This document shows, in pieces, positions 11,210-64,000 of a stretch of DNA of 64,000 nt. Numbering within the stretch: the first letter of the stretch is position 1; the number at the start of each line of letters is the position of its first letter. The DNA is from Candidatus Pacearchaeota archaeon (GTDB taxonomy: Archaea > Nanobdellota > Nanobdellia > Pacearchaeales > GW2011-AR1): contig JBAZYP010000007.1 of the NCBI GenBank assembly GCA_041659265.1, positions 9,928 through 73,927 of the forward strand, read 5' to 3'. The position numbers were made by a program, and so were the translations under genes. The notes beneath the pieces were generated by a model. The model saw only the letters and a list, made by a program, of their open reading frames with translations. It was not told the origin of the DNA and did no database searches.

Positions 11210-11313
11210 CGCCCGGGACAGGACTTGAACCTGCGACCTACTGCTTTCCCCTAAATATCTTTATTGTCTATTATTAGAAGGCAGTCGCTCTATCCAAACT
11301 GAGCTACCCAGGC
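11210..11313 (-). tRNA. tRNA-Arg (anticodon TCT) with a 29-nt intron at the canonical 37/38 position
   Basis: Reverse strand: GCCTGGGTAGCTCAGTTTGGATAGAGCGACTGCCTTCTA [intron, 11246..11274] AGCAGTAGGTCGCAGGTTCAAGTCCTGTCCCGGGCG. The acceptor, D, anticodon (ACTGC/GCAGT) and T stems all pair once the intron is removed. Confidence 0.85.
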
Positions 11314-38039: not shown

Positions 38040-38125
38040 TATTTTCCTCTTTTTTTACCTCCTTTCAATATATATTAAGTGAAAGTTATAATAATACATA
38101 TTTTTTAATATATAAAGGTTTCTAT

Positions 38126-38174
38126 TTTTTCAAAAATGAAAAACCTTTTTCAAATATAATTAACATTTTTCAAA
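38126..38174. promoter_or_regulatory. Three copies of TTTTTCAAA spaced exactly 20 bp apart in the divergent promoter region between the secreted-paralog genes and the HTH-PAS regulator gene
   Basis: Copies at 38126..38134, 38146..38154 and 38166..38174. The first is part of the palindrome TTTTTCA-aaaa-TGAAAAA. Confidence 0.45.
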
Positions 38175-38239
38175 TTTAAAAACATTTATAAACCTAAATC
38201 ATATTACTAATAATGGATAAAGGGGAATAGTGAGAAAGA

Positions 38240-39195: not shown

Positions 39196-42100
39196 TTAAG
39201 CTAATTCAATATAGAATGCAACTGAACGAGTATCAGTGGTTTTTAATTCTCTTAATTTTGCAGGGATTCTCATCTCATAATCATATATTCCATATTTTCC
39301 AGCCTTATTTCTATTTATTTTGGTTACAAATACTAAATCTTCTTTATCAGTTCTATCAAATTGCAAATTACCACTATCTTTTGAACTATCCCATAATATT
39401 CCAGTAATAAAATTAGTTGTATTTGTAGAATTTACAATTGGCACATCAGAAATAGTTTTTCCAAAGATTTGAAAATTTGTTATATTTTTTGGTATAGAAT
39501 TAACTGTATATGTTTCATTTATTGAATCAACAAAAGTGCTCATATTAAACAAAATATCTAAGTCAATAAAATCATTTGTTGCATTACTTCCATTTGTAGC
39601 TTTCCATATTGCAGTTAATGAAGGCCAATCTATAATTGATTCATAATCACTAACAAAAAGATTCCCGTTATTAAACATATCAGCATTCCATTTAACAACT
39701 TCAGAACTACTATTATCAGCTAACCTAAATATGCTATTATCAAGTACATTTCCATAGATTATCTCCCAAGCACCAACAGTTATTATTTTGCTAGCATTAT
39801 TATTTGTTTCATTGATCTCTCTATAAAATCCATTTGTAGCAATTGGAGGATCTACTTCAACAACTATTAGATTTGTGCCTAGATTAGCATTCCAGGTTAC
39901 ATTAGTTATATTCATACCATATGCAGATATAGAAATATTTTGATCATTTCCAATCTGTACTCCACCAGAACTAGGGTCTCCATTATAAAATCTAACAACT
40001 ACATTATCTATCCCAATATTTCCAAGATTGTATATAGTTGCATTTATAGTAATCAAATCATTTTCAGAAGGATTAGGATTGCTAAATCCAATATCAGAAC
40101 TATTTATAGAAAAATCAGGTTTACTTAAATTAAAATTCCAAGTTAAGCTTATATTAAAATTTGATATTATATCATGATCCCAGCATGAAACATTCCAATA
40201 ATGTTTTCCAATAGATAAACCACTTACATTTTCCTCATATAATTCACCACTTAAAACAGGAATATTTGTTTTATTATTTATTCCATCAATAGTTAAATTG
40301 CAAGTTAAATTGCTATCAAACCTATCACTAGCATTCCATCTAAAACTAACTTGATTAGGACTATATAGGCTAGAATCATTTAAAGGATAAATTAGAGCAA
40401 TGGTTGGAGGACTATAATCAATTGTAAAATTTGTATAATTTGGAGTATAAATATTATAATCAATATCTATGCATTCAACAGTCCAATTATGCCTGCCTTC
40501 AGACATTCCTATTACACTAAAATTATTTTGATAATTTGGATTAATTGAACCTTGTGTAGAATTATATACCCCATCTATAAAAATACTGCAATTCAAGAAT
40601 CCCATAGGGTCCATTGGAGTATAACTAAAATTAAATGAAGTTTTATTTGTTCTATAATTATTTATTGGGAAATCTAAAGTTACATTTGGTGGAGCAATAA
40701 TGCTAAAGTTTCTAATTTGAGAATAATTTATATTTCTAGCTTCATCAGAACATATTAATGACCATGAATGATTTCCATCTCTTAATAATGCATAATGAGA
40801 ATAATTTAAAGCACTTGTCAAATTTCCTCTAAATTCAAAACTTCCATCAACTGTTAAATTGCAATCAATTTCACTATCCAAATTATCACTGATGTTATAG
40901 TTAAAACTTACATTATTAGTAATAATTAATTCAAACTGATATGGAGAATACATTTCTATTAGAGGAGGAATTGTATCAATATAGAAATTTCTAACAATAT
41001 CAGTTGCATTTAATCCCCTGACATCAGTTATATTAACAGTCCAATTATAAAATCCATCAGATAGACCATTAACAGAAAAATTATTTTCTTGATTCACTAT
41101 AACCGGAGTATTATTACTTTTATTAAAAATATCATTAATAAAAAGATAAGACCTACTTATACCTTCATCATCCTGAGGCAAATAACTTAAATTAAAATTA
41201 GTGGAATTAAACCAATAATTATTTGCTGGCCAAGTTAAATTTACATAAGGTTCAATTATTTTTGTAAAATTAAATATACTGCTACCTGCACTATTTCCAG
41301 CATCATCACTGCAATTCACATACCAAGTATGATTACCTTCAGATATTCCTGAAACTGTCCAAGTAGTTATAGTACCATTTGTTGCATTTATATTATAAGC
41401 TCTAAGAGTAGAATCAACACTCAAATTACATGTTAAAAGACTATCAACAATATCAACAACACTAAAATTAAAAGTTATATTTGCTGCATGTACTTCACCA
41501 CTAGGTTGTAATAGAGTGATATTAGGAGGAAAATTATCTAAATAAAATATTCTTGTTTCTGATAATCCATTAATATTAAAATAATCACTACAATTTATAT
41601 ACCATGTATGAAGTCCATCTGATAGTCCGGCTATATCAAAATTATTATTATTTCCAATAAATATCTCAGAACTATTTGATTGATTAAATACATTATCAAC
41701 ATAAAGTCTGCATGAACTTATTCCAGTATTATCATAAGGAATATATGATAAAGTAACTGAACTACCTGTAAATGAAGAAGCATTTGGAGTTGTTAAATTT
41801 ATTATTGGAGGTTCAGCAATTGTAAAATTCCATGTTGAACTATTGCTTTCATGTAATGCATCATCAAAACAAGTTACATTCCAAAATTTTAATCCATCAG
41901 TTAAATTTTCAATTGGTCTGTTTGTTAATATTCCTGAATTTGCACTAAATCCAGAATCAACAATTTCTCCACCCATAATAATACTGCAATTTAATTGATT
42001 ATCTATACTATCATTAACACTAAAATTAAAATTAAATGAACTTTTATTATAGATTCCGCCATCTATAGGAGAATCTAAACTAATATTTGGACTAAACAAA

Positions 42101-45100
42101 TCAATAATTAAACTTCTTTGAGGACTTGCTTGTCCAGTTAAATTTCCATCACTACAATTAACAGTCCAATTATAAAATCCTTCATTCATATTAAATTTAA
42201 ATAAATCATTAGATTCTCCATTTGCTACAGCACTTTGATTAAATATATCTGCAATATTATTTAATAATAAGAAACATCCGCCAGCAACTTCAATATTATC
42301 TGTAACATTATATGTAAAAGTTAAATTACCATCATCATCAATTGTAGATTGATTTGGACTAACTAAATAAACTTCAGGAGGAGTGTCTGAAACATTAAAA
42401 TAAAATAAAGAAGTTGAATATTTTCTCATAGATTCATCAGTACAAGTTACATTCCAATAATATTCACCAGGACTTAACCCACTATAACTAACATTAGTTG
42501 CATTTCCATTTCCTGCAGATATAATTGCCGGAGCAATAAGTAAATCATTTAAATAAATACTACAACTTAAAACACTATCAAGATTATCTGTTGCATTAAA
42601 ACTAAAATTGATTCTATTTAAATTATAAGAATAATATGCAGGAGGATAAATAATACTTATATTTGGATCAATTAAATCAATATAAAAAAGCCTGCTACTA
42701 TCAGTACCAGTATTATTCGCTATATCTTTTGCTTCAACAGTCCAATTATATACTCCATTACTGAAATTAACTGTATATGTATGATAATCGCCATTAATAA
42801 GTTCAGTCTGGTTAGTGTCATTAATTACTCCATTAATAATTAAACTAGTATTTTTCAAATCTAAATTAGGATCACTCACATTATAGATTAAATCAACTGG
42901 AGTATAATTAAACCAAGTATTATGAGTAGGAGTAATCAATCTAACTATTGGACTTAATCCTACTTGAACAATTAACATTAAAGAATTATTTGCAAAAATT
43001 GTCCTATAACTGCTATTAACAATTATTGGATAATTACCTAAAGAAGGAGGAGCAGTAAAATTATAATTATAATATCCATTCTCATCGGTTACTACTGCTG
43101 TAAAATTTATTTTAATATCACTTACATAAGGTTTTATTGTACTATCAACAGCACCAAGTTCAACCTTATATTGTAAAAATCTTCCAATAATCCCTTCAAA
43201 ATTTTCTCCTTTATTAATTTCTATCCAAGAACCCCATGTCAAATTATCATTAGAAGTTCTAACATAAAAAGTAGCTCCAGTGCATTCACTTGAACTAAAA
43301 CTAGCTCTTAATATCGGCCTTTCAGATTGAGTTATATAATCACTACTCCTTATACTAACCCCATTACTTGCTAAAGGATGTATTACCACTCCATAATTAT
43401 TTATTGTATGATTATTCCATCTTCTAATAACATTACTAACATCAAAAGTTTTTGCTCCAGTTGTAGAAGTATCAATTGTACTCTCTAAATTTATTGATCT
43501 AGAAGGAGATCCAGCACAACCTAATGAACCCCAAGATATTCCTGTAAGTCTATCATCATATGTTGAATCTAATTCAGTCCAATTTTCAAGAATTTCATAA
43601 ACATTAGGACTATCTCCAGATACATAAACTTGTAAAGTTATATTAGCTTGACTAATGGTGGAATTATAAGGGATTTTTCCTCCCCCATAACCAAAAATTT
43701 CATCAAATTTTAATAAACTTCTTAATACACTTGGAGATGTATCTAACATAAGTTCAGAACTACTTCCAAAATTATTAGATGATGATCCACTGGATATATA
43801 ATTATCAATTGTTGATGAATAAGAATTTACATCTCCATCTTGAAAAGAAACGGTTCTAGTACAAGATGTTCCTTTAAACTGCCAATCAATACTAGTCCAT
43901 TTAACTATGGCTCCAGCATCAAAAATCTTTGAATAATTTCCACTAGAGTTCCCACTTGCTAAAGTTAAATTTTCTCCATCATTAACTATATTATAATAAC
44001 TTCCTTTATCAAATTCAATTGAACTATCCTCACTAAAATTCAAAAAATTATTATAAGACCCATTAGCAGTTACATTGCTAAAAAGATAAACTCTTCCATT
44101 AACCCAAAGATTAAAAGGATGATTTGGTAAATAAGTCCCATTTGTAAAATTCAAATAACCTGAAATAAAAACACTTTCATTTGCATAAACTGTCAGAGGA
44201 TCCATCTCTAAACTAATATTCATTTCTAAAATACTAAAATTATTATCATATTCAGAAACAAATCCAGCACTATCATTTGCATAAATAGTATAATAATAAA
44301 ATGCATTCCAGCTATGATCTGTAGGAATTATTCCTATCCATAATATTCCTCCAAGATAAGTTAGTGTGGATCTTAATTTTTGACTTCCACCTTTAATAGT
44401 ATTCCAAACTACCATCCAAACCCTATCAAGATTATTATCACTTACATTTACTCTTACTGAAAGATTTTGTCCTTCTTGCAAAGGATAACTATCATTAACA
44501 ATTATATCTTCAATATCTGTCTGATTGATAAAAGTAATTAATGGTGCAGCACTATCAATTCCAAATGTAACACTAGCAGAACCTACAGAACCTTCACTAT
44601 CATTTGCATATACAAACCAAGTATTATTTCCTTCAATAGATATAAGGCCCGTAATATTCACTCCGCATGTAATACTAGTATTTGTTTCTCCCATATTTAG
44701 ACTATACCAACAACTATCTAATGGAGTAGATGAACCTGATATTGTATAATTCATGGAATTAACAAGTGAACTATAAGTAGTATTTAATGGATAAACAATC
44801 CTAACAGAAGGCGGTGCTTTCCAGCTAATATTCATATCAAGTAAATAGATGATATTATCACTTGAATTTGTATTAAAAAATACCCTATATAAAAGATTAT
44901 ATCCTTGAGTAAATCCAGTTAAAATTCCCCCCCTATTTACACTATACCACGTGCTTCCACCATTTACACTGATATTTACACTAATATTATTATTTTGATT
45001 AGTTCCAAATTCATTCCAAGTTATATTTGAAATTGCTTTAATAGGATCAGTTGTATTAATTGGATATGATGTAAAATTTGCAAATAAAGGAATATAATAA

Positions 45101-48100
45101 AAATCAAAATTATCATATCTTGTATTAGCATGTGCATTTTCATAGATTCCTATTCCCCCATCTTTCCAAGTACTATCAATTGCGCTCAATACTGCAACCC
45201 CATTTAAATAACAAGTTATATTTCCATTTTTTACACTTACTGAATAATTATTCCATTGATTCTGTACATAATTTGTTGTTGTTGTAACAAGATTAGTTGC
45301 AACTCCTCCTTGAACTCTTACAATTGCATTATCTGTTGTCTGAAGTCTAAAACTGCATCTATAATAATCAGTAGCATTTCTATATCTAAAAAGAATTCCA
45401 GTCCAATCATCATCAGGATCATATCCAGTTACACTTATATTATAATCATAATTTGTAGATACATTAAAAGGAAGATAAACTGCAAATGCCTCATTATTAC
45501 TCGTCTGTAATAATTCATAACTATTTATGCTCCAAGTTCCTGTTCCAAAAAATCTCCAATTGTTTGTAGTTTCAAACGAATCTAATAAATTAAAAGTTTT
45601 ATCGCTAGTAAAACTAACATTTCCAATACTCCAATTTAAATTATTATTAAAATAATATAAAGAGGAATTATCATTAAAGCTATCATAATAATTCCTATTC
45701 ATATTAATAATAAAACTAGTTCGATTAGAACTCAAATTTCCAACACTATTATTTGCAAAAACACTTACATTAAAATTCCCTTCTTTTAAATAAAGGAATT
45801 TAGTTATAGTTCCAGAGCAATATGAACATAATGAAATATTAGCTCCATTATTAATATTATACCATAAATTCGAGGCACTATCATTTAATGTAATATTTAA
45901 AGTAGGAGTTACATCAGCTAAAGTTGTTCCAGATAGAGGAGAATTAATAACAATTTGTGGCGGAGGTGTAATAACATTACTCCAAGTTATATTCATATCT
46001 AATAAAGAAATTGTTCTTGATGGAGTAAAAGAATTATAAATAACTCTATACAAAAGACTTCTTCCAGATTGCATATTTGTTATATCTCCTCCATTTGAAA
46101 TATTATACCAAATATTTCCATTATTAGGACTAATCTGAACAGAGATTGTATTATTTTCATCACTTCCAGATTCAAGCCAACTAACATTCTTTATTTGAGT
46201 AATAGTTGCTGTTGTATTGATTGGATAAGCAGTAAAATTTGCAGTTGTACCTCTTGAAAAATCAACTACATACCAGGGAATATCTAAAATTTCTCCAGTT
46301 ACCTCTCTTCTTAAATTAAGATTAGTGGAATTTGTTAAATTTGCTCTAGCCCACATTATTCCAATGTTATCATTTGCAGTATAATTACTAGAACCTGCTT
46401 TCTGATTTCCAGGTAAAATTACTAAGGATTTAGAGAGATCAATATTTCTTAATGGAATATCTAATGTATTTTGAGGTCCATTAAAATGAGCAACTCCAGA
46501 TTGTACTAATTCACCCCCATTAAATTCAACTGCATACCAAGAAACATATAACGTTCCAGTAGCTACTTTTCTTTGGAAAAATATATTAGATGAATCGGTT
46601 AGATTTACAATTAAACCGCCATTGCCCGCAGTTGTATCTCCTGAACTAGCAAATGTAGCTATAACAAAAGTTTTATTTAAATCAACAGGCATATCTAAAG
46701 GGATAGTATCATTAACTCCAGTTAAACTAAATACTCCATTTTGCACATTAGCCCCACTATATTCAATAGCTTGCCAAGCAACAACATCATTAGGATTAGC
46801 TGCAAAATAAGTTTCAAGTGAATTTGATTCAGTTATTGTTACTCTGCAATTATCAGTAGTTCCATAAGTGGCACCATCATCCATCCAACTAGCTAATGGA
46901 AATGAATTAGCTAAATCTAATGCAGGATTAATTGCGGTATTAATTGTTCCAGCATTCTGTAAAAAAGTTCCTCTCCGGACTCTAACTCCAGAATAAAATT
47001 CAGCTATATACCATTCAATATACACAGGATTATTTTCAGTTGCATCAGTACTTGATTGAAAATGTATTGTTGTAGAATTAGTTATATTTCCATAAACTAA
47101 AAAATCACCAGGATCTACTTCATTAGATGAATAACTAAATGTTAAAAAAGAAGAACTAATATTTATTTCAGCAGGTATTAATTCATCAACTGATAAAGCT
47201 CCTGTTGGTATAAATGTAGAACCTTTATAGACTTTTTTTATTTCAGCTTGCGAAGGATTTGTATAATTAACACTTCCTATCGACCATTCAACATCATTTA
47301 ATGTTATTAAAGAAGAATTATCGCTAAAACTATCATAATAATTATAATTCATATCAATTATATAATTGGATATTGCTTTGCTTTGCTCATTAAGATTATT
47401 AGATGCATAGACCCTTACATTTTGTCCTCCTTCAGCTAAATATAAAAATTTTGTAAATGTTCCAGAACAAGAAGTGCAAATTGTTGTATTAGTTGAACCA
47501 TTATTAACACTATACCATAAAGTATTTGCATTTCCATTAATACTTACATTTAAGATAGGAGTTACATCGGCTATAGTAGTTCCTTGTAATGGATAATTTA
47601 TGGTTATATTAGGTGGAGGAGAGGTAGTATTTGTCCAACTAATATTCATGTCGCTTAAAGAAATAGTATTACTTGAATTTGTTGTAAATGTTACACGATA
47701 AACTAAACTATTTCCACTTGTTATATTTATTATTCCCTGCCCTTTAATAACAGGACTATAATGAATTCCATAATCAGCACTAATTTCAACTGAAATTAGA
47801 TTATTCGCATCAGTTCCAGATTCATTCCAATCAACATTTAGAATTTCAGCAATGGATGAAGTAGTATTAATTGGATAGGAAACAAAATTTCCACTTGTTG
47901 TTGTTCCAAATTCAATTACATACCACGAAATATCCGCATCAGATGTTGTTAATGCTCGTTCTAATCTTAAATTTGTAGTATTAGTAATAACTCCTGTTAC
48001 CCACATAGTTCCAGGATTATCGCTTGTCGTAAAACTGCTTTCTCCCCCTCTTTGATTGCCTGATATCATTACAATTGTCCTGTTCATATTTACTGAACTT

Positions 48101-53775: not shown

Positions 53776-53813
53776 AATAAATCACGTTTTATTAAATTTA
53801 AGAAAGAACTTTC

Positions 53814-54020
53814 CTATCTTTCTTTTTCTCCTTTTTTTCTTAAAGAGTTTGATTTTTCAATAATTCCTTTATTTTCATTTACGATATTATTTCCATTAGA
53901 AAGATTTTTTATTGCATGTTCAACAACATGACTTCTATTCCTAAATTCTCCAGAATCAATTAGACCATCTATAAGTGATATAGTTTCTTTATCAAATGTA
54001 AAACTTGCCCTCTCTTTCAA
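53814..54020 (-). CDS. Ribbon-helix-helix (CopG/NikR-like) DNA-binding protein, directly upstream of the giant gene
   Basis: 68 aa with a TTG start. ASFTFDKETISLIDGLIDSGEFRNRSHVVEHAIKNL fits the RHH strand-helix-helix consensus. It ends 38 nt before the giant gene's ATG. Confidence 0.6.
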   Translation of the reverse strand: MKERASFTFDKETISLIDGLIDSGEFRNRSHVVEHAIKNLSNGNNIVNENKGIIEKSNSLRKKGEKER

Positions 54021-54080
54021 TTTGTTATCCTCTTAATCTTTAATCCCTATATTAATCTTTTGATTTTATTTCTTAAACTC

Positions 54081-54253
54081 ATAAATTTTGAATTGACTTC
54101 AAAATTTATAGCAAACTTATCTTGCTTAGATTTAAAAAATCTAAACAATTGCCTAATATTAAATGTATAATATCTATATATTAGAAAAAGACCTATTTAA
54201 ATATTACGAAATATTATTTAGTATTATTTAGTATTACGAAATAATACTAAATA
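54081..54253. promoter_or_regulatory. Three perfect palindromes in the region upstream of the RHH + giant gene pair
   Basis: ATAAATTTTGAA-ttgac-TTCAAAATTTAT (54081..54109), TTAGATTT-aaa-AAATCTAA (54126..54144) and TATTTAGTATTA-cgaaa-TAATACTAAATA (54225..54253). There are also direct repeats tatttagtat x2 and attacgaaata x2. Confidence 0.4.
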
Positions 54254-54259
54254 ATCAAA

Positions 54260-54769
54260 TTAAACATTATATTTTTTATCTTCACCTAATCTGGATAGAA
54301 GTTCATTAATCTCTTTTTTCAATTCAATATTATTTAGTTCACGGTTTAATGCATATTTATTAATAATTTCTAATTCTTTTTTTTGATGCGCCATTTCCTC
54401 TTCAAATTGTTTTCTTTGAGTTATATCCCGGATAAACGCAATTGCACCAATAAACAATTGAGAATCAAATATAGGATATTGTCTTGAAGAAAAAAATCTT
54501 TTATTACCATTTATTATGATTTCATAATCATATGTAGCACTTTCCCCTAGTTGATTTTTTTCATAAGAATCATTAAATAAATTATTCATAAATTCCGGCA
54601 TAATTTCAGAATATATTTTACCTAAAAAATATTCAGGAGAAAAAAGTAATAGATCTTGCATAGATTTAGAAATATGACAAAAAATAAATCTTTTATTATT
54701 ATCAAAAACAAAAATAAGTTCCTCACAATATTTTAATAAATCTCCATTTAAAATATTTTTAATATCCAT
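54260..54769 (-). CDS. Single-PAS-domain protein with a conserved C-terminal coiled-coil motif; no output domain
   Basis: 169 aa. PAS core with ..GAIAFIRDITQRKQFEEE. The C-terminal motif ALNRELNNIELKKEINELLSRLGEDKKYNV is shared with the 1039 aa PAS protein. Confidence 0.7.
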   Translation of the reverse strand: MDIKNILNGDLLKYCEELIFVFDNNKRFIFCHISKSMQDLLLFSPEYFLGKIYSEIMPEFMNNLFNDSYEKNQLGESATYDYEIIINGNKRFFSSRQYPIFDSQLFIGAIAFIRDITQRKQFEEEMAHQKKELEIINKYALNRELNNIELKKEINELLSRLGEDKKYNV

Positions 54770-54823
54770 AATATAGAATTAAAAAGACACCTCGACTATA
54801 AAAATTTTATTATTCTAAAATAA

Positions 54824-57800
54824 TTATTTTTGTTTAAGTCTAATCTTTAGTTCATAAAAATGTAATAATATGGATAAAATCCCCGTTAGTATCAATGATA
54901 AAAATCCAATATAAAATAATTTTCCTTGAATCAAATTAGCGACCCCTTCACCAATCCCTTTTTTAATAATAAATGTTTCTTGAGCTTCAGCAGGTTCAGT
55001 CTGTCCTAAATAATCCAATTTTACAAAGATTTTATATTCTCCTTCGTTTAATTTTGAAGTATCAAATTCTTTAATAAATTCAGTCTGAGTTTCAACAGGA
55101 ACTATTTCTTCCTCTTCAATATAGAGATTATCATTCATATCAGTTATTTTATAATAAAGATTGGCATTTACTTTTCCAGGTAAAGCTACATTAATTAAAC
55201 CAATTACTCCAGATATTTTTTTTCCTATATTTATCTCTTTCTTTAATAATCTTAAAGAAATATCAAATAAAGTTACTTTTTTTGGTTTAATTTTTTTTGG
55301 AGGTATTATCGAATTGGTATTATTTACTATTTCATTTTTTTTAGATGGAATAGACAAAATTTCCTGATTTCCACTCCCCCCATAAGAAATAATATTTTCT
55401 TCAGATATATCCATTTGATAAAAAACCTCTTTATTTCCACTAAGATTAATTATAAAATTAGCAGATTCATTCATAAAATTTATTTCAATGGAATAATTAG
55501 ATAAATAATTTATAGTTTCCGAATTTTCCATTATATACTCGCTTGCAATAAAATAAATTCTGCCATCATTATCCGTAGTTTTTAAGGAGATTAGATTGCC
55601 TTCATTATCTTTCAAACTTACATTAGCATTTGGAATTGGAATTCCTGAAGTATTATTTAAATAAACATTAATATAAAATGAATAATTTAAAAATGCATTG
55701 CTGGTACTGTCCCAAAAAATATTTTCTATTGAAGTATTAATAAAATTCCATACGCCATTATCAATACTATCAGATACATAAAAACCATATTGGGAATAAT
55801 TTCCAATATTCGAATCTTTTATAATAAAATTATTATTTGATCCAGTTACAAATATAGAATAAGCAGATTCTTCTATAATTTCAAAAATTAATTTTTCAAA
55901 AATAGAATTTGCGTTGGATAAATAAAAATTTATACCTTTTGAATCATTACCACTAATATAAATCCTTTCTCCATAAAAATAATTTGTACTTCCAAGGCAA
56001 GATGATAAATAAATTCCATTTGCATTATTTCCCCTCTGAGTTATATTATTTTCAGAAAAATTATTATTTATAGAATTTTCAATTACTAATAGGCTAGAAT
56101 AATCTACATCTGAAAATAAATTATTTGTTTGAAAAAAGTTATAACTAGAATCTGTATTAATATATAATCCATAAGGAGTTTCATTAAATATAAAAATTGA
56201 ATTATTTAAAATATTTGAATAATAGATCTCAGAAGTATAAACACATTTGCCATCAAGAGAATAACAACTTATATTATTATTAGTAAAATTAACATAAGAG
56301 GAAGCAGATAATGAAGCCCCATATGATTGAAACCCTATGCTTGTAATAGAATTTGAATCAAGTTTTGTATAATCAGATTCTGAAGTTAAATAAATAGAAT
56401 AAGAATTAGGATGAAAAATAAAGAAATAATTTCCAGAAATATTTGATTCTGTTAAATATTCTAAATAAAATCCATAAGAACTATCATTATTAGAATAAAA
56501 ACTATTATTCACTACTGAAAAATTTGATCCTATTGAAACATATAATCCAGTATTATCTAATCCAAAATTAGTTAGATTATTATTTATAATATTTCCGTTT
56601 AAAGAATCTACTAAATAAATAGAATCAAGATAAGCAATTATATTATTATCTCTTATGGTAAAATTTTGAACTTGATTAAAGCAGATACCACTAGAATCTC
56701 CTCCAGAAATAAATATCGAGTTATTAATAAAATTATTTCCAAAAGAATTTTGCATAAGAATTGAACAAGTTGCCGAATCAAAATTATTTAAATTTAATTG
56801 ATTAGATTCAAAATTAGAATTATTAGTATAATTTACAATATAAAGATCATATGAATCCAATCCATAAGAAGTAATATTATTTTCAGTTAAATTAATAAAG
56901 TTTGAAGAATCTATATAAATTAAATAACTATAATTTCCAAAAGATAAAATTTGATTTTCATTCATATCAATAAGTTCGGATGATTGAATAAGTATTGGAA
57001 AAGAACTATTCCCTGAAGCATTAAAAAAATTGTTAGTTATATATGAATTTGTTATAGAATTTAAATAACCTCCATAATTATTTGTTGCATAAGTTGTTAT
57101 ATTATTATTGCTTAAATTTATCTCGGTATAATCTGCAAAAAATCCATAAGAATCTTCAGAATAAACCTTGATATCATTATTTAAAACAAGATTATTTATC
57201 CCTCCCTCTATATAAAGATTATAGCTGCTAGTTCCTGAAATATTTAAAGTATTATTTATTATTTGAGAATTAGATGAATCTGATAAAAATATATTACGTG
57301 TAGGAGTTATATCATCATTAGCCTCATAAATAATGCAATTAAGTATTCTTGTATTTGAATAACTAGAATAAATTCCATAACCAGGAGATTCCAAAGAATG
57401 CCCGATCTTATGATTATTACAATCTAAAGTTATATTATCTGCAGAAATAGTAAAACAAGTTTCAGTAGATTCAAAATCCCTGTCTAAAACATAAATCCCA
57501 TTTATAGTATTTAAGTCACCACATTCAGAAATATCAGGATCAATTTTAGCTTGAGTTTCGCCCTCACTAATTAAAAAATCAAAGCTATTAGAATCATATT
57601 TAGGTATTTCAAATCTAACAAGGATTGCCAAAGGTTTTTCCACTTCATTTGATTCATCAAACATTTTTACAACAAGACCGCTTATAAAACTAGATTTTAA
57701 TTCGCCATCTCCTTCACTTTCACCATATCCATTTCCTTCATCAGTTCCTATTCCTTCACCTTCACTCTCAATTTCATCTTCACTATCTTTATTACCCTCT

Positions 57801-58858
57801 TTTTCATTAATAACCTTATTTCCTTCATTATTAATTTCTTCAACATTCTCTTTTTCAGTTGATTTAATATTATCCTCCTTTCCATTAATACCCTCTTTTA
57901 AATTAGAATTCTCTTCACTTGATTCGTCAATTATTTCATCTTCATTTAAAATTTCATTAGATCCAGAACTATCTTCCTCTTCATTTAAAATTTCATTATA
58001 TTCAGAAATATTTTTATCATCTATAGATAAATTACTAATTTCATCAGAATCATCATAATCATTATTAGTGTTATTTTCTTCAATATTTTGATTATGAGAT
58101 TCATTTAAACTTTCAAAGGTTAGATTTCCTTCATTATATTGATTAGTCTCAACAATTTCTTCAGATTTATTATAATCTTTTTCTTTAATCAAATCTTCTT
58201 TAAGTTCTAAATTTTTTAATTCTACAAAATTATAAAAACTCCTTTTTTTAATTTTATTATTAATAATTTCTAATTTATTTCTTTTAACATCGCGAATATT
58301 ATTACCTTCGCTTTTTAAAATATTCTTTCTAAAAATTTTATTATCTTCATTAATAGAGAATAATTCTTTTTCTTGATTTAATAATCCCTTTATTTTTTCT
58401 TCACTGATTTCTATATCTTGCAAATTTTCATAAGTTAAGGTATAATCCTTTGAATATAATATTTCAATATCTTTAACATCATCAGGCTTTTCAAATTTAA
58501 GCTGAATATTTGGATTTTTTAATTCTAATTCATTCTTTCCTGTTAAATCAATTTGAAATATGGCTTCACAAACTTTCCAACCATCATCATTTTCAGGATT
58601 TTTCCAATGACAATTTATTTTTGGTTCAGTAGAGATAATAACCCCTGATGAATTTGAAAATTTGTATCCATTTAAATTAACTTCACTACCTTCACTTATC
58701 TCAGGCATTTCTATCTCACTTTTAGCAGATAAAATATCTTCAGTATTTTTTATTGAAAATAAAGTCAAATTTGGAACAGAAGAAATAAAAAATAATAAGA
58801 AAAAAATAAGAAAAAAACTCGTTATAAAAAATATTATTTTTTTTCTAGCTTCAGTCAT
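54824..58858 (-). CDS. Large (1344 aa) surface protein with an N-terminal TM helix, an acidic low-complexity region, a long right-handed parallel beta-helix (PbH1/NosD-like) repeat array and a C-terminal anchor module
   Basis: Repeating ..N.I.....GI.L..S..N.I.NN.I.. units run over about 600 aa. An E/D/N/S-rich stretch covers about residues 225-400. The C-terminal TM helix is LFYIGFLSLILTGILSILL. Confidence 0.85.
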   Translation of the reverse strand: MTEARKKIIFFITSFFLIFFLLFFISSVPNLTLFSIKNTEDILSAKSEIEMPEISEGSEVNLNGYKFSNSSGVIISTEPKINCHWKNPENDDGWKVCEAIFQIDLTGKNELELKNPNIQLKFEKPDDVKDIEILYSKDYTLTYENLQDIEISEEKIKGLLNQEKELFSINEDNKIFRKNILKSEGNNIRDVKRNKLEIINNKIKKRSFYNFVELKNLELKEDLIKEKDYNKSEEIVETNQYNEGNLTFESLNESHNQNIEENNTNNDYDDSDEISNLSIDDKNISEYNEILNEEEDSSGSNEILNEDEIIDESSEENSNLKEGINGKEDNIKSTEKENVEEINNEGNKVINEKEGNKDSEDEIESEGEGIGTDEGNGYGESEGDGELKSSFISGLVVKMFDESNEVEKPLAILVRFEIPKYDSNSFDFLISEGETQAKIDPDISECGDLNTINGIYVLDRDFESTETCFTISADNITLDCNNHKIGHSLESPGYGIYSSYSNTRILNCIIYEANDDITPTRNIFLSDSSNSQIINNTLNISGTSSYNLYIEGGINNLVLNNDIKVYSEDSYGFFADYTEINLSNNNITTYATNNYGGYLNSITNSYITNNFFNASGNSSFPILIQSSELIDMNENQILSFGNYSYLIYIDSSNFINLTENNITSYGLDSYDLYIVNYTNNSNFESNQLNLNNFDSATCSILMQNSFGNNFINNSIFISGGDSSGICFNQVQNFTIRDNNIIAYLDSIYLVDSLNGNIINNNLTNFGLDNTGLYVSIGSNFSVVNNSFYSNNDSSYGFYLEYLTESNISGNYFFIFHPNSYSIYLTSESDYTKLDSNSITSIGFQSYGASLSASSYVNFTNNNISCYSLDGKCVYTSEIYYSNILNNSIFIFNETPYGLYINTDSSYNFFQTNNLFSDVDYSSLLVIENSINNNFSENNITQRGNNANGIYLSSCLGSTNYFYGERIYISGNDSKGINFYLSNANSIFEKLIFEIIEESAYSIFVTGSNNNFIIKDSNIGNYSQYGFYVSDSIDNGVWNFINTSIENIFWDSTSNAFLNYSFYINVYLNNTSGIPIPNANVSLKDNEGNLISLKTTDNDGRIYFIASEYIMENSETINYLSNYSIEINFMNESANFIINLSGNKEVFYQMDISEENIISYGGSGNQEILSIPSKKNEIVNNTNSIIPPKKIKPKKVTLFDISLRLLKKEINIGKKISGVIGLINVALPGKVNANLYYKITDMNDNLYIEEEEIVPVETQTEFIKEFDTSKLNEGEYKIFVKLDYLGQTEPAEAQETFIIKKGIGEGVANLIQGKLFYIGFLSLILTGILSILLHFYELKIRLKQK

Positions 58859-59064
58859 TATATATTTTTCATAGGCAAATCAACTGGCTGATATAGTTTT
58901 GCCATTCCAACCTTCCTTACAATCACTTTTTCTCCACCCTCTAATCTAGCTAAAATTATTCTTACAGCACCCCGGGATAATCCACTCTCATTAACTATTT
59001 CAGTAATAGTTAATCCTCCATTATTTGTTCTATTTAATATATCTAAAATTAATTTATCATCCAT
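58858..59064 (-). CDS. Small winged-helix DNA-binding protein, translationally coupled to the 1344 aa gene
   Basis: 68 aa. LTITEIVNESGLSRGAVRIILARLEGGEKVIVRKVGMAKLY looks like HTH plus wing. The TAATG stop/start overlap is at 58858, and AGGAG lies upstream of its ATG. Confidence 0.6.
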   Translation of the reverse strand: MDDKLILDILNRTNNGGLTITEIVNESGLSRGAVRIILARLEGGEKVIVRKVGMAKLYQPVDLPMKNI

Positions 59065-59088
59065 AATTAACTCCTTTATTCATTAAAA

Positions 59089-59970
59089 TTACTTTGAGTC
59101 ATTTTTCTCATTTTTTTTTGTAAAAAAATTTATTAAAAAATAGAATAAAATGACAAAAAATACAAAAAGAACTATGCTAATTAATCCTGAATAAGAAGAT
59201 TTACCAATGATTTCAAAACTCTTTTCAGATATTGCGGTCTGATTTTTACCATAATAAATTGATGAAGTTATTTTATACTCTCCAGGTTCTAACCTTAAAA
59301 AATCAAAATTTTTTATTATTGAATCTTCTGTATAAACTACCTTATCATCAACACCAGTATAAACCTCACTTCCACTGGAATTAATTATAGAATAAACAAT
59401 ATTAATTCTTGATGGCCCCTCACCAAAATTAACAAATCTTATATATATTGTTAAATCTTTTGATTCAACAATTTTTTCTTCAGATAGTCCAACCTCAATA
59501 TCAAATAATTCCTTATAATTTGTTTCACCATTAAAATTTTCAGAATATTCTTTTAAATAGATAATTGCTTTATCATTATCAAAATTAATATAATTTATTA
59601 CAATATCCAGTTTACCATCCTTATTTAAATCAATAATTTTTGTTTCATTAAGTTTCAAACTACTTTTTTCATTATTAAATAAATAATAATCAATATTTTC
59701 AGAAGTTATTTTTTCTAAAATTAAAAAATATTTTTTATCGCCTATTAAAATCCTAAACGCCTCGTTATTACTATAACTTGAAGTATATCCCTTTGATAAT
59801 ACATTTGGACTGATTTCATTTATTTTTTTAATATTATCAAATATTGGATCTTTTTCTTCATCTATAGTTGAAGTTATTGTATCGCTAGTTGGAAAAGCAG
59901 AGATATTTGCTAAATATAATAAGATCATAATTCCTAAAAATCCAATTTTCAACCTAGTTAACTCTTGCAT
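59089..59970 (-). CDS. Surface protein with a signal peptide, a Ca-binding-like DLNKDGKLD loop and the shared C-terminal anchor module
   Basis: 293 aa. The C-terminal region ...RLEPGEYKITSSIYYGKNQTAISEKSFEIIGK...LISIVLFVFFVILFYFLINFF resembles the C-termini of the 1344, 1509 and 223 aa proteins. Confidence 0.65.
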   Translation of the reverse strand: MQELTRLKIGFLGIMILLYLANISAFPTSDTITSTIDEEKDPIFDNIKKINEISPNVLSKGYTSSYSNNEAFRILIGDKKYFLILEKITSENIDYYLFNNEKSSLKLNETKIIDLNKDGKLDIVINYINFDNDKAIIYLKEYSENFNGETNYKELFDIEVGLSEEKIVESKDLTIYIRFVNFGEGPSRINIVYSIINSSGSEVYTGVDDKVVYTEDSIIKNFDFLRLEPGEYKITSSIYYGKNQTAISEKSFEIIGKSSYSGLISIVLFVFFVILFYFLINFFTKKNEKNDSK

Positions 59971-59984
59971 ATCTTAATCCCCTT

Positions 59985-60036
59985 TTAACAATATTGTTAA
60001 CAACATCTAAAACAATATCATTAACATTATTGATCT
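59985..60036. promoter_or_regulatory. Perfect 16-bp palindrome TTAACAATATTGTTAA plus two degenerate copies in the divergent region between the surface-protein operon and the Lrp/AsnC gene
   Basis: 59985..60000 is perfect. 60009..60024 (AAAACAATATCATTAA) and 60021..60036 (TTAACATTATTGATCT) each match 12 of 16 positions. The first lies 15-30 nt upstream of the ATG at 59970. Confidence 0.4.
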
Positions 60037-60177
60037 TCAAACAAATATTTTTAAGGATATAAAGCTAAGGTTTATAAATTAAAATATATTAAATATATTA
60101 GTTGAATAAATAAACTCAGATTATTTAAACTATAAAAAATTATTATAATAATGTTTTATTTATAAACAAAAAAGAGA

Positions 60178-60744
60178 ATGAAAATTACAAAAAATGAAAA
60201 AAAGATATTAAAATTACTCCTATTAGATGCAAAAATCTCAGATATTGCTCTAGCCAAGGAATTAAAAATATCAAGTCAAGCTGTAGGAAAAATAAGAAAA
60301 AAATTAGAATCAACTATTATTGAATCTTATTCTATAAATCTAAACTATTCTAAATTAGGGATAAATCTTTTTGCAATAACACATTCAAAACTGACTCCAG
60401 AAGGACTTGATAAAGGAGAATTAGAAATTGAAGAAAAGCTTCTTGAAGAACCCAATATTATCCAAATTAATCGACTTCCAAGTGGAAATTCTACCCATAT
60501 TATACTATATGGATTTAAAGATATGGTTGAACTTGATGATTTCTTTCATTCACCTAAGAAAAAACATGAACTCCATAAATATATTGAAACTAAAGATATT
60601 TTTACATTTTCAAATCATAGTTTAATAAAGAATAATCCAAGACAATTATTTGAAAAAGTTATAGAAGAAACGAGTTGCGAAAATATTGAAACAACTTCTT
60701 ATTTTAAAGAATTAGAAAATTTCAAGAAAAAAATTAAAGAATAA
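60178..60744 (+). CDS. Lrp/AsnC-family transcriptional regulator
   Basis: N-terminal HTH_AsnC pattern NEKKILKLLLLDAKISDIALAKELKISSQAVGKIRKKLE..II, followed by an alpha/beta effector-like domain. Confidence 0.75.
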   Translation: MKITKNEKKILKLLLLDAKISDIALAKELKISSQAVGKIRKKLESTIIESYSINLNYSKLGINLFAITHSKLTPEGLDKGELEIEEKLLEEPNIIQINRLPSGNSTHIILYGFKDMVELDDFFHSPKKKHELHKYIETKDIFTFSNHSLIKNNPRQLFEKVIEETSCENIETTSYFKELENFKKKIKE

Positions 60745-60750
60745 AAATAA

Positions 60751-63700
60751 ATGGAAGAAATTGACTATAAGGCAATAATAGATAGTACTTATGACTGCGA
60801 AATAGTTAGAGATAAAAATTTGAATCTAATTTATGTTTCTCCTTCATTTGAAAGAATTTTTGGTTATAAAAATATTGATTATCTATCTGGAAAAATAAAA
60901 ACAGAAACAATTATTTATAAAGAAGATATAGATAAAATAAATAAATATTTCGAATTATTAAAAAAATTTGGAACTATAGAAGATTCTGAAATAAGAGGAA
61001 TTACAAAAGATAATAAAATTATTTGGTTATCCTTATCCTGTCAACCAATAAAAGATTCAAAAGAAAATAATATTGGAATGCGTTGTAGTTTAAGAGAAAT
61101 TACAAAAAGAAAAATTAATGAAGAAAATTTAAAAATTTCATTAGAAAAATTAGCTTTATCTCAAAAAGCAAGTAATTCAGGAGCATGGGATTGGGATATG
61201 ATTTCAAATAAATTATCTTGGACAGATGAATTTTATAACCTTTTTGGAATTAATAGAAAAGACTATCCGGAAAGTTTTGAAACATGGAAAAATCTGCTTC
61301 ACCCAGAGGATAAAGAAAGAACTATTAAGATATTAAATGAATCAATAATTAATAAAACCCACTTAAAAAATTATTATAGGATAATAAAACCCAATAAAGA
61401 AATTATCTGGATAGAAGCCTTAGGAAATACCTATTATAAAGATAATAAAGCGATTAGAATGTCTGGAATCTGTATTGATATAACAGAAAAAAAAAATATT
61501 GAAGAAAAATTAAAAGAATCTGAAGAAAGATTTAAAATACTTTCAGAATCTTCAATTAACGGCATATATCTTACTGATCCAAAAGGAGATTGTATCTATG
61601 CTAACCCTGCTTGGTTAGAAATGGCTGGAATTAAATTTAATGAAGCGCTAGGGAAAGGTTGGATAAACGCTCTGCATCCAGAAGATAAAAAGACAATAAG
61701 TGAAAATTGGTATAAAACAGTTGAATCAAATGGTAAATGGGCGTTTGAATATAGATTTATTACACCCTCAGGAAAAATTCATTGGATTTATGGTAGAGCT
61801 AAAGCAATATTTGATTTGAATAATCAATTAATTGGTTTTATTGGTAATAATACAGACATAACTGAAAAAAAAAGAATAGAATTAGAATTAAAGGAAGAAA
61901 AAGAAAAATTTAAAAAAATATTTGAAACAAGCCCATTAGTTCTAGGTTTATCAACAATTGAGGATGGAAAATATATAGAGGTTAATGAAAAATTTTTAGA
62001 AGTATTTGATTTAAAAAAAGAAGAAGTTATTGGTAAAACATCTAAAGAACTTAATATCTTCTCAAATTACGAGGATAGAAATAAGATTATCGAAAGTTTA
62101 AAAGAAAAGAATATAGAAAAAGGTATAGAAATAAAAATAAATACAAAAAAAGGACCTGTTCTTTATCAATTCTATATTTCAAAAACCTTTTATCAAGAAA
62201 AAGAACATTTATTGGTAATTGGTCAAGATATTAATGATAAAAAAGAATTTGAAACTAAAATAAAAGAATCTGAAAATTTTCTAAATCAGATTATTGAAAA
62301 TTTGCCTTTAATGATATTTGTTAAAGATGCTAAAGAGTTAAGATTTGAAATTTTAAATAAGAAAGGTGAAGAGATATTTGGACAAAAAAGTGAAAATATA
62401 ATTGGAAAAAATGATTATGATTTTTTTCCTAAAGATCAGGCTGAATTTTTCATAAAAAAAGATATGGAAACGATTAATAGTAAAAATTTAATAGATATTC
62501 CAGAAGAACCGATTAAATCACCAATGGGTGAAAGAATTCTACATACAAAAAAAATTCCTTTATTTGATGAAAATAATGTTCCAAACCACCTTCTAGGAAT
62601 TTCCGAAGATATAACTGAAAAAATAAATTTAAATAAACAGATAATAGAGAGTGAACAAAAATTTAAATCTTTATATTATTCTATGAATGAGGGGGTGGCT
62701 TTGCATGAATTAGTCTTTGATGATAAAAATAACCCTATTGATTATATTATCCTTGATGTAAATCCCAAATTTGAAGAAATTACAAATATTAAAAGAGAAG
62801 ATATAATAAATAAAAAAAGTATTGAAATTTATAAAACAAAAGAACCTCCTTATTTTAATGTCTATAAAGATGTTTCATTAAATGGAAAATCAACTAATTT
62901 TGAAAGCTATTTTGAACCTATGAAAAAACATTTCTCGATTTCAGCTTTTTCTCCATCTAAAAATAAATTTGCAACAATATTTACAGATATAACTGAAAAA
63001 ATTGAAAAAGAAAAAAGATATCTTGAACTTTTTAATAATATTAATGATGCAGTCTTTATTCACGATCTAGATGGTTATTTTTTAGAAGCAAACGAAGTAT
63101 CAATAAAAAGATTAGGTTATTCAAAAGAAGAATTATTAAAAATGAATCTAAAAAATATAGATTTACCAATTTTCCAAGAAAAAATAAAAGAAAGAGTTAA
63201 TAATCTTGTTAATAATGGATCCAACATATTTGAATCAGTACATGTTACAAAATCCGGAAAAGAAATTCCAGTAGAAATTAATACAAAAATTATAGATTAT
63301 CTAGGAAAAAAAGCCATTTTAAGTATTTCAAGAGACATATCAGAAAGAAAAAAGAATGAAGATATCTTAAAAAAAAGTTCTCAAGAATGGGAAACTACAT
63401 TTAATTCAATGCAAGACCTTATTTCCATACATGATAAAGATTATAGAATAATTAAAGTGAATAAGGCATTTGCAGATGCATTTAATCTTAAACCAGAAGA
63501 GATAATTGGAATGAAATGTTATGAACTGGTTCATTCTAAAACCAGTCCTCTTCCTTTTTGCCCACATAAAAAAGCTATGGAAGAGGGTTCCCCTCAAAAA
63601 TTAGAATATTATGATGAACATCTAAAATTATATCTTGAAGTTGGAACAAATCCCATTTATAATGAAAATAAGGAATTTATTGGTACAGTTCATGTTGTTA

Positions 63701-63870
63701 GAAATATTTCAGAAAGAAAAAATATTGAAAAAGAAATTATTATGAAAAGTCAAGAACTTGAAAAATTTAATCAATTTGCAGTTGGAAGAGAAATGAAAAT
63801 GATTGAATTAAAAAAAGAGATTAATAATTTATTAAATAAATTAAATGAAAAACCAAAATACGAAGTATAA
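60751..63870 (+). CDS. Multi-PAS (eight PAS/PAC units) sensor protein without a recognisable kinase or other output domain
   Basis: Eight PAC-end motifs were read directly: REITKRK, IDITEKK, TDITEKK, QDINDKK, EDITEKI, TDITEKI, RDISERK and RNISERK. It ends with AVGREMKMIELKKEINNLLNKLNEKPKYEV. No HisKA H-box or HATPase N/G boxes were seen. Confidence 0.85.
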   Translation: MEEIDYKAIIDSTYDCEIVRDKNLNLIYVSPSFERIFGYKNIDYLSGKIKTETIIYKEDIDKINKYFELLKKFGTIEDSEIRGITKDNKIIWLSLSCQPIKDSKENNIGMRCSLREITKRKINEENLKISLEKLALSQKASNSGAWDWDMISNKLSWTDEFYNLFGINRKDYPESFETWKNLLHPEDKERTIKILNESIINKTHLKNYYRIIKPNKEIIWIEALGNTYYKDNKAIRMSGICIDITEKKNIEEKLKESEERFKILSESSINGIYLTDPKGDCIYANPAWLEMAGIKFNEALGKGWINALHPEDKKTISENWYKTVESNGKWAFEYRFITPSGKIHWIYGRAKAIFDLNNQLIGFIGNNTDITEKKRIELELKEEKEKFKKIFETSPLVLGLSTIEDGKYIEVNEKFLEVFDLKKEEVIGKTSKELNIFSNYEDRNKIIESLKEKNIEKGIEIKINTKKGPVLYQFYISKTFYQEKEHLLVIGQDINDKKEFETKIKESENFLNQIIENLPLMIFVKDAKELRFEILNKKGEEIFGQKSENIIGKNDYDFFPKDQAEFFIKKDMETINSKNLIDIPEEPIKSPMGERILHTKKIPLFDENNVPNHLLGISEDITEKINLNKQIIESEQKFKSLYYSMNEGVALHELVFDDKNNPIDYIILDVNPKFEEITNIKREDIINKKSIEIYKTKEPPYFNVYKDVSLNGKSTNFESYFEPMKKHFSISAFSPSKNKFATIFTDITEKIEKEKRYLELFNNINDAVFIHDLDGYFLEANEVSIKRLGYSKEELLKMNLKNIDLPIFQEKIKERVNNLVNNGSNIFESVHVTKSGKEIPVEINTKIIDYLGKKAILSISRDISERKKNEDILKKSSQEWETTFNSMQDLISIHDKDYRIIKVNKAFADAFNLKPEEIIGMKCYELVHSKTSPLPFCPHKKAMEEGSPQKLEYYDEHLKLYLEVGTNPIYNENKEFIGTVHVVRNISERKNIEKEIIMKSQELEKFNQFAVGREMKMIELKKEINNLLNKLNEKPKYEV

Positions 63871-63872
63871 AA

Positions 63873-64000
63873 ATGAAATTAAAATATAAAATTTTAAGTG
63901 GAATTGTTATAATATTAATAATAAGTATCTTATCCATTATATTCCTAATGACATATAATCAACTAAGTTTTAAAAAATATCTCGGAGAACAATCAATAAA
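63873..64000 (+). CDS. Partial CDS running off the window; the N-terminus has a TM helix
   Basis: ATG at 63873, giving MKLKYKILSGIVIILIISILSIIFLMTYNQLSFKKYLGEQSI..., open to the window end and 2 nt after the PAS gene stop. Confidence 0.4.
   Translation, partial: MKLKYKILSGIVIILIISILSIIFLMTYNQLSFKKYLGEQSI

Follow-up and report, generated by a model that had tools for sequence, protein, structure and literature searches.

Organization and conservation of the surface-gene island

The 64,000-nucleotide stretch of Candidatus Pacearchaeota DNA analyzed here (contig JBAZYP010000007.1; hereafter the window) contains an island of genes encoding large surface proteins, small DNA-binding proteins, and PAS proteins, organized in five transcription units (Table 1). 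An earlier reading of the DNA, based on sequence only, had described nine of these genes as a supercluster at positions 39196-63870. All nine are present as open reading frames (ORFs) with exactly matching coordinates. The domain assignments largely hold; those of the ribbon-helix-helix (RHH) protein and of the helix-turn-helix (HTH) in the 298-amino-acid (aa) protein rest on weak sequence matches. The supercluster is a real, inherited unit, because the order of the neighborhood is kept in diverged relatives. However, its limits had been drawn too narrowly, and the island runs down to position 35335 and past 63870. The start was moved to 35335 because the related loci L057 and L055 repeat the secreted-protein genes beside the HTH gene that follows the giant gene.

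Table 1. Features of the island in the window. Array and control-region entries have no strand.
Feature	Coordinates	Strand	Remarks
Three-gene operon for secreted proteins of 268, 253, and 339 aa	35335..38039	-	Outside the originally described cluster; part of the conserved island
Operator-like array	38120..38195		Three inverted repeats TTTCAwTTTTGAAA, about 20-bp spacing, between two outward-facing TATA boxes
Winged helix-turn-helix (wHTH)-PAS one-component regulator, 298 aa	38240..39136	+	Convergent with the giant gene
Giant surface protein, 4859 aa	39196..53775	-	N-terminal membrane anchor, lectin-like and Ig-like domains, no C-terminal anchor
RHH-like regulator, 68 aa	53814..54020	-	TTG start; head of the giant-gene operon
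Promoter/operator-like array of the RHH-giant operon	54197..54255		Five TAATAYT heptamers in either orientation, phased at 10 bp up to a TATA-like box
Single-PAS protein, 169 aa	54260..54769	-	Conserved C-terminal tail (54263-54397); lineage-specific
Beta-helix surface protein, 1344 aa	54824..58858	-	A hydrophobic segment at each end
Small wHTH protein, 68 aa	58858..59064	-	Stop overlaps the beta-helix start (ATGA)
Doubly anchored protein, 293 aa	59089..59970	-	C-terminal Ig-like module and anchor common to the beta-helix protein
Divergent control region	59985..60080		Palindrome TTAACAATATTGTTAA with two degenerate copies (59985-60036); back-to-back TATA boxes GGATATAAAG / CTAAGGTTTATAAAT (60055-60079)
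Lrp/AsnC regulator, 188 aa	60178..60744	+	Two extra C-terminal helices
Eight-PAS cytoplasmic protein, 1039 aa	60751..63870	+	Starts 6 nt after the Lrp gene; C-terminal tail of about 45 aa (63733-63867)
Next gene of the Lrp-PAS operon	63873..64000	+	N-terminal membrane helix; starts 2 nt after the PAS stop, runs off the window

Pfam matches are sparse among the window proteins (19 ORFs were scanned). The 64 kb contain only three PAS ORFs, those of 298, 169, and 1039 aa, and Pfam or TIGR models of PAS domains score above cut-off in each of them. Hydrophobic anchors are predicted in the 293-aa, 1344-aa, and giant 4859-aa proteins, and in none of the regulators or PAS proteins of the locus.

Related loci, designated by L numbers, were collected by scanning an alignment of Lrp proteins against species-representative genomes (40 loci, mapped by ORF calling and BLAST) and an alignment of RHH proteins against metagenomes (21 loci). 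The comparison with related genomes that the sequence-only reading had proposed shows that the genes are not scattered and that their order recurs in diverged lineages. The complete order is present in L057, a 45.8-kb metagenome contig: kinase, PAS, and Lrp genes, then on the other side of a divergent junction beta-helix, RHH, and giant genes with a convergent HTH gene, followed across a second junction by 268-, 253-, and 339-like genes. L055 repeats the right half of this arrangement. The order in L004 is giant, RHH, beta-helix, and wHTH, divergent from Lrp and PAS, and L005/L054 has the same order without the wHTH gene. A beta-helix homolog is paired with divergent Lrp and multi-PAS genes in L002, and is followed by a small gene and a gene for a 4545-aa protein in L003. 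A contig from the ENA database carries genes for proteins of 302 aa, 70 aa, a beta-helix protein, 75 aa, and a large protein, in this order. The beta-helix gene thus adjoins the Lrp-PAS pair, the RHH-giant pair, or both in L002, L003, L004, L005/L054, L057, and the ENA contig. The Lrp-PAS operon is divergent from a surface operon in at least seven lineages. The sequence-only reading had placed DNA-binding genes around the surface proteins, and these genes do travel with the surface genes, together with conserved arrays of promoter repeats.

RHH gene and promoter array of the giant surface protein

The product of the 68-aa RHH gene is 57-78% identical to that of a small gene abutting or overlapping the giant gene in all related loci. 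Every RHH locus in which a downstream gene is visible has a giant homolog there, mostly overlapping the stop codon of the RHH gene, and the RHH gene lies directly upstream of a giant homolog in 19 lineages (the metagenome loci together with the window, L003, L004, and L005). Across these lineages, the N-termini of the giant proteins have a median identity of 34%. The giant homologs range in length from 2310 to 4859 aa, and the difference between lineages is strongest in the middle part. The window protein has an N-terminal hydrophobic segment and matches the Pfam families Laminin_G_3, GH115_C, Big_13, and 3keto-disac_hyd above their cut-offs and CARDB slightly below.

The region upstream of the RHH gene contains a phased array of TAATAYT heptamers, or their complements, at a TATA box in all 22 of the 22 loci examined. 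Each locus has two to seven copies, most of them spaced at 10-12 bp, compared with 0.4-1.4 expected from shuffled sequences. The window array begins no more than 10 nt from the stop codon of the 169-aa PAS gene and forms the core of what had been described as a palindrome-rich spacer. The leader between the array and the RHH start is about 170 nt long in the window, compared with about 40-50 nt in most lineages, and contains two further palindromes (54081-54148). The L055 leader is also expanded, with a comparable hairpin at about 220-300. Two lineages have tandem copies of the RHH gene (L046, 3589-3905; L053, 213-529).

Similarity of the 68-aa protein to characterized RHH families is weak. 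The NCBIfam matches are to CdrS (E 6e-4, 19.8 bits) and ParD (E 2e-3, 17.9 bits), far under the respective cut-offs of 100 and 46.2. The match to Pfam ParD_antitoxin has an E-value of 0.07, and those to ParD and NikR structures in the PDB have E-values of 0.11 and 1.4. The PDB matches are in register from residue 4.

Secreted-protein operon and the adjacent HTH regulator

The convergent 298-aa regulator matches PAS_4 in residues 194-297 (E 9e-17). The match of its N-terminal part to HTH_IclR is weak (E 0.006, 16.8 bits against a cut-off of 22), and that of its L057 orthologue is above the cut-off (24.0 bits). The orthologues in L055 and L057 are 176-180 aa long, align to residues 1-173, and do not have the PAS domain.

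The genes for the 268-, 253-, and 339-aa secreted proteins keep their order beside the HTH regulator, after the giant gene, in L055 and L057. Three or four copies of the inverted repeat TTTCAwTTTTGAAA occur at matching place and phase between the operon and the regulator in the window, L055, and L057. In Pacearchaeota and Nanoarchaeia, 725 homologs with about 50-60% identity belong to the 268-aa family, which may be a major structural component of the surface. The family has no match in Pfam, nor in the PDB when searched with a profile of 37 sequences, and the AlphaFold2 (AF2) model of the 268-aa protein has a pLDDT (predicted local distance difference test score) of 50, too low for a fold search. 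The 268-aa protein (37233-38039) ends in the residues YYFYVELE, and the C-terminus of the giant protein, near 39196, ends in the similar strand VAFYIELA. The 253-aa gene of the operon is at 36363-37124. In two lineages, a HerA/DUF87 ATPase gene stands beside the secreted-protein genes (L070, 5164-8847; L003, 290-2701). An N-terminal stretch of the L070 ATPase resembles the 268-aa family, and an MNT/HEPN pair is inserted in the L070 version of the island.

Beta-helix operon

The 1344-aa protein matches Beta_helix PF13229 with 28.6 bits, over the cut-off of 25.9. Its homologs in Pacearchaeota and Woesearchaeota are about 30% identical and carry PF13229 and PF05048. The small wHTH protein encoded upstream matches HTH_24 with 26.7 bits, above the cut-off. 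A 78-aa orthologue occupies the equivalent place in L004, and a 70-aa gene, known by position and size alone, does so in the ENA contig, where a 302-aa gene stands at the place of the 293-aa gene. The 293-aa protein has hydrophobic ends and is 28-29% identical to residues 1197-1334 of the beta-helix protein; a genome scan with it returned no matches.

L008 (5364-9830, minus strand) encodes a surface protein of 1481-1488 aa in which an in-frame fusion joins the small wHTH to the membrane segment and the ectodomain; the NCBI annotation also represents it as a single gene. Such a fusion would be a membrane-tethered wHTH protein. A search for further fusions of wHTH and surface proteins returned the L008 protein only, and it is therefore treated as a single, unconfirmed case in which a sequencing or frame error is possible.

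The 169-aa protein at the end of the operon matches PAS_4 (E 4e-7) and is 32% identical to the last PAS unit and tail of the 1039-aa protein. Its place is taken in other lineages by a membrane-protein gene of 137-166 aa on the opposite strand, which matches DUF2127 in one contig. The presence of three PAS proteins, noted in the sequence-only reading, does not hold as a design feature of the cluster, as orthologous loci lack both the 169-aa PAS gene and the PAS domain of the 298-aa regulator. The PAS load of the locus is partly a recent gain, because these two PAS domains were found in the lineage of the window only.

Lrp regulator and the divergent control region

The assignment of the 188-aa protein to the Lrp/AsnC family is borne out by both profile and fold. 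The protein matches HTH_24 with 25.5 bits against a cut-off of 21.9, and its profile aligns to the HTH of the PDB entries 8q90 and 1i1g (E 2e-14); the alignment spans positions 7-130 and covers the RAM domain. The AF2 model of the monomer has a pLDDT of 91.7, and Foldseek superimposes it on many Lrp/AsnC structures with template modeling (TM) scores of 0.75-0.83 relative to the target. Conservation of the last helix, with the motif F.ELENFKKRL, is confined to the clade whose Lrp genes are linked to PAS and kinase genes.

The closest Lrp proteins are from ten lineages, share 48-69% identity, and all have the C-terminal ENFK helix. A PAS gene follows the Lrp gene in nine of these ten lineages, and a large surface gene is divergent from it in seven. 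The gap or overlap between the Lrp and PAS genes is at most 47 nt in the window, L002, L004, L005, L006, L007, L008, L012, and L057.

The back-to-back TATA core of the divergent control region looks similar by eye in L004, L005/L054, L006, L008, and L057. It is the only element that recurs across the Lrp/surface intergenic regions, where an operator common to the Lrp proteins was searched for. At the place equivalent to the 16-bp palindrome of the window, L004 has two copies of TCAATATTATTCACAGCA. No counterpart was seen in L002, L054, and L057, all of which are without the small wHTH gene. On the evidence of these five loci, the palindrome may belong to the small wHTH protein and not to Lrp, because the window and L004 share both the palindrome and a separate small wHTH gene.

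Truncated KaiC-like proteins (DUF7504/DUF7090/DUF835) are encoded next to Lrp-like genes in distant lineages (L013, 10622-11158; L014, 10634-11167; L026, 9774-10409). In close lineages, KaiC-like genes end the operon of Lrp, PAS, kinase, and receiver (REC) genes (L002, 821-1348; L057, 839-1318).

Multi-PAS protein, its conserved tail, and the histidine kinases of relatives

The 1039-aa protein contains eight PAS units, as had been claimed, recognizable from eight PAC-end motifs that are about 125 aa apart. An exact-match search with the protein returned no record. One unit, the last, at about 63508-63567 (residues 920-939), contains the motif G-x-K-C-Y-x2-[VI]-H-x3-[SC]-P-x3-C-P. Its C-x4-H-x8-C signature (C923, H928, and C937), a candidate metal or redox site, is kept in L004 and L006, and a Cys-only variant is present in L002.

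The C-terminal tail with the consensus of about ELEKFNkFAvGRELKMvELKKEIN.LL..lG.p.kY is common to the 1039-aa and 169-aa PAS proteins and recurs in the majority of the Lrp-linked PAS proteins that relatives encode, without being covered by any Pfam family. A search of the full library returned 3481 cluster representatives, including Magnetobacterium and Cloacimonadota proteins, and in nearly all of the best 150 the tail is at the extreme C-terminus. The contexts of five tail-bearing proteins were inspected. In three of them (L066, L067, and L069, all bacterial), the tail gene precedes a V4R gene and the gene for a hybrid kinase (HisKA-HATPase-REC-Hpt) without a listed sensor domain. A Cache-HAMP gene comes next in the fourth context, and TPR-HATPase_c genes after that. 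The combination of a tail protein, a V4R protein, and a sensor-less kinase looks like a split sensor/kinase design, and the widespread PAS-only protein with the conserved tail is likely a detached sensor partner of histidine kinases.

Histidine kinases are also found in the Lrp-PAS operons of relatives. In L057, the PAS gene is followed by genes for a CHASE4-HAMP-HisKA-HATPase kinase, a REC-only protein, and a KaiC-like DUF835/DUF7090 protein. In L002, a Cons_hypoth698 gene and a 47-aa ORF precede a HAMP kinase gene, a REC-only gene, and a DUF835/DUF7090 gene. A CHASE4 kinase follows in L008; a second tailed PAS gene, a binding-protein gene, and a Cache kinase gene in L012; and genes for binding proteins and HAMP proteins in L004, ahead of a Cache kinase gene cut at the end of the locus. 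The L006 locus, with a CHASE4 gene and a Cache gene, breaks off ahead of any kinase domain, and L005/L054 has HisKA-HATPase within the PAS protein itself. REC-only genes are present in L002, L017, and L057. No HisKA and HATPase_c kinase is visible in the window, which ends inside the ORF at 63873, and no REC protein is visible in its scanned parts. By synteny, this ORF probably encodes a CHASE4 or Cache histidine kinase. The kinase-less PAS signaling put forward in the sequence-only reading is unsupported, because the Lrp-PAS operons of relatives continue into, or are fused to, a histidine kinase, and because 2 nt separate the PAS gene of the window from the start of a membrane-protein ORF.

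Genomic context

The GC content of the window is about 27% and uniform along the 64 kb. Homologs of its genes carry the names Pacearchaeota, Woesearchaeota, and Nanoarchaeia, and the source sequencing runs are groundwater metagenomes. A tRNA with an intron and a ribosomal protein S3Ae gene are archaeal markers. The 104-nt tRNA (11210-11313, minus strand) was identified by an Rfam match and missed by ARAGORN, presumably because of the intron. Two other large ORFs are without Pfam matches, 12123-16652 (1509 aa) and 24081-28322 (1413 aa), and the 1509-aa protein has Ig-like repeats in common with the giant protein.

Proposed regulation of the surface genes

The locus is probably best understood as a vertically inherited island of surface genes in which each transcription unit has its own small transcription factor and to which an Lrp-PAS(-kinase) sensor operon is coupled. 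The mechanism that we infer comprises the pairing of repeats with regulators, the sign of regulation, the wiring between PAS protein, kinase, and Lrp, and the co-regulation of the units. The RHH and giant genes would be one operon, and the RHH protein would most likely bind the heptamer array and repress its own operon. Such autorepression would hold the 14.6-kb giant gene at low, steady expression. The wHTH regulator, fused to PAS in this lineage only, would share a divergent promoter with the three secreted proteins and most likely bind the inverted repeats. The genes for the 293-aa protein, the small wHTH, the beta-helix protein, and the single-PAS protein would form an operon divergent from Lrp across the back-to-back TATA boxes. 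Lrp, in turn, would head a sensor operon encoding the cytoplasmic multi-PAS protein and then the membrane protein. The PAS protein would be a detached cytoplasmic co-sensor of the kinase, and Lrp the DNA-binding arm that couples the PAS and kinase pathway to the beta-helix surface operon.

Several observations weigh against this interpretation. The RHH fold of the 68-aa protein is weakly supported by its sequence, and the assignment of repeat arrays to regulators would follow from their co-occurrence only. The ORF at 63873 is visible for 42 codons only; its N-terminal layout resembles that of kinases in the relatives, but the aligned stretch is poor in information. The adjacency of Lrp and surface genes is missing in L007 and L011, distant Lrp homologs (less than 50% identical; those from Altiarchaeales, Methanosarcinales, and others mostly less than 45%) have unrelated neighbors, and only L004 has a counterpart of the 16-bp palindrome next to the 293-aa gene. 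The lectin-like, Ig-like, and beta-helix domain types, together with analogy to proposals for other giant proteins of DPANN archaea, suggest that the surface proteins may function in adhesion or host contact. The giant homolog of L070 has a small wHTH gene of another kind upstream and lacks the heptamer array. The rule that a small DNA-binding gene precedes a large surface gene holds with different folds, because L070 places a small wHTH gene and not an RHH gene there. It fails for the 1413-aa gene of the window, which has no small upstream ORF, and the stricter rule of a tiny DNA-binding gene before every large gene was rejected.

It is conceivable, although unlikely, that the sensor operon and the surface genes have no functional link, the shared order being inherited by small genomes and the regulators controlling themselves or unrelated targets. 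The lineages without Lrp-surface adjacency, among them all those with distant homologs, and the lack of a motif shared by the Lrp/surface intergenic regions beyond the TATA core agree with such a view. However, the divergent layout persists even though the surface proteins are only about 30% identical and the outer flanks differ, and the compact back-to-back TATA layout recurs. Moreover, the argument does not apply to the RHH-giant and HTH-secreted units, which have shared promoters and conserved repeat arrays. Direct signaling, in which three kinase-free PAS proteins pass redox, light, or ligand signals straight to the wHTH, RHH, and Lrp proteins through C-terminal coiled coils, appears rather improbable. 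The three PAS proteins do lack a kinase domain, two of them have the conserved helical tail in common, one regulator is a direct fusion of HTH and PAS, and the conserved C-terminal helix of the PAS-linked Lrp clade is a possible docking site. Against it stand the histidine kinases within or fused into the operon in L002, L004, L005/L054, L008, L012, and L057, the coupled membrane-protein ORF after the PAS gene of the window, and the wide distribution of the tail in bacteria, where it adjoins sensor-less hybrid kinases. The lineage-specific nature of the 169-aa PAS gene and of the PAS part of the HTH regulator speaks against it as well.

There is very little to recommend a horizontally moving cassette, either an integrated element or a variable surface-antigen island, with RHH and wHTH proteins as mobile-element regulators. 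Such regulators are common in mobile elements, the RHH protein weakly resembles ParD antitoxins, the giant protein has a middle part of very variable length, and L070 carries the MNT/HEPN insertion. However, the uniform GC content does not set the island apart from the rest of the window, and the Pfam scans of the 19 window ORFs gave no sign of an integrase, a transposase, or flanking repeats. Vertical descent fits, because the gene order and the highly conserved secreted proteins (50-60% identical) are kept across many lineages.

Comparison with known systems

For an Lrp/AsnC ("feast/famine") gene, a divergent promoter is the usual setting for autoregulation and control of the neighboring operon. 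The window Lrp has the same N-terminal HTH and RAM fold as the archaeal proteins LrpA of Pyrococcus furiosus (1i1g) and a halophilic Lrp (8q90). In contrast to these, it adds two C-terminal helices with the clade motif F.ELENFKKRL. Its gene comes first in an operon whose further products are a multi-PAS protein and, among relatives, a sensor kinase, and diverges from surface-protein genes instead of genes of amino-acid metabolism.

RHH repressors read short repeats in helical phase. The window RHH protein resembles the RHH autorepressors CopG, Arc/MetJ, omega, and ParD, as well as CdrS, in that it is small, is encoded first in its operon, and has a weak in-register match to CdrS, ParD, and NikR. 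Its promoter also has short repeats in helical phase, to which binding is predicted. Unlike those proteins and the archaeal RHH factors CdrS (PMC7439475, PMC8406309) and aCcr1 (PMC9976878), it scores under family cut-offs, and the gene downstream of it encodes a giant surface protein and not a replication, toxin, or division protein.

Giant surface proteins of DPANN archaea have been proposed to function in host contact, among them the SPEARE proteins of Nanohaloarchaeum antarcticus (PMC6642349) and the LamG-rich proteins of Nanohaloarchaeota and Mia14 (PMC7443923, PMC5498576). Like these, the window giant is very large, membrane-anchored, rich in lectin-like and Ig-like domains, and encoded by an archaeon of the ultrasmall symbiont type. 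It is not a SPEARE protein, since it has no protease or restriction-endonuclease domain and matches lectin-like, Ig-like, and CARDB-type domains only. The window giant has a dedicated regulator and a putative operator upstream, features without mention in the consulted parts of the papers that the literature searches returned. A literature search, with incomplete coverage, returned neither a description of the locus nor of the control of DPANN giant surface genes.

Archaeal two-component systems include REC-only regulators with unknown outputs (census in PMC5847659) and the Methanosarcina acetivorans network with the CHASE4 kinase MA4377 (PMC11784639). The relatives of the window likewise encode a CHASE4 or Cache kinase, a REC-only protein, and a KaiC-like DUF835 protein in one operon. 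However, a detached, tailed multi-PAS protein and an Lrp-type regulator are fixed members of this operon, and the kinase is seen in the relatives and not in the window.

Implications

DPANN archaea are thought to be attached to host cells, and giant surface proteins are the usual suspects for this attachment. The locus provides named regulators and candidate operators, TAATAYT in 10-bp phase and TTTCAwTTTTGAAA in 20-bp phase, that are kept across many uncultured lineages, and the candidate regulator-operator pairs are testable in vitro without culturing the organism. The likely role of the tailed PAS protein as a kinase partner bears on how transcription is controlled by archaeal kinases that have no DNA-binding response regulator. 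It is a speculative and on balance doubtful proposal that the Lrp protein with the clade-specific C-terminal helix could be the output of a non-canonical pathway, composed of a CHASE4 or Cache kinase, a tail-docked multi-PAS co-sensor, a REC-only protein, and a KaiC-like DUF835 protein, which switches the host-contact proteins of DPANN symbionts. If true, such a pathway would give archaeal kinases that lack DNA-binding response regulators a concrete route to promoters.

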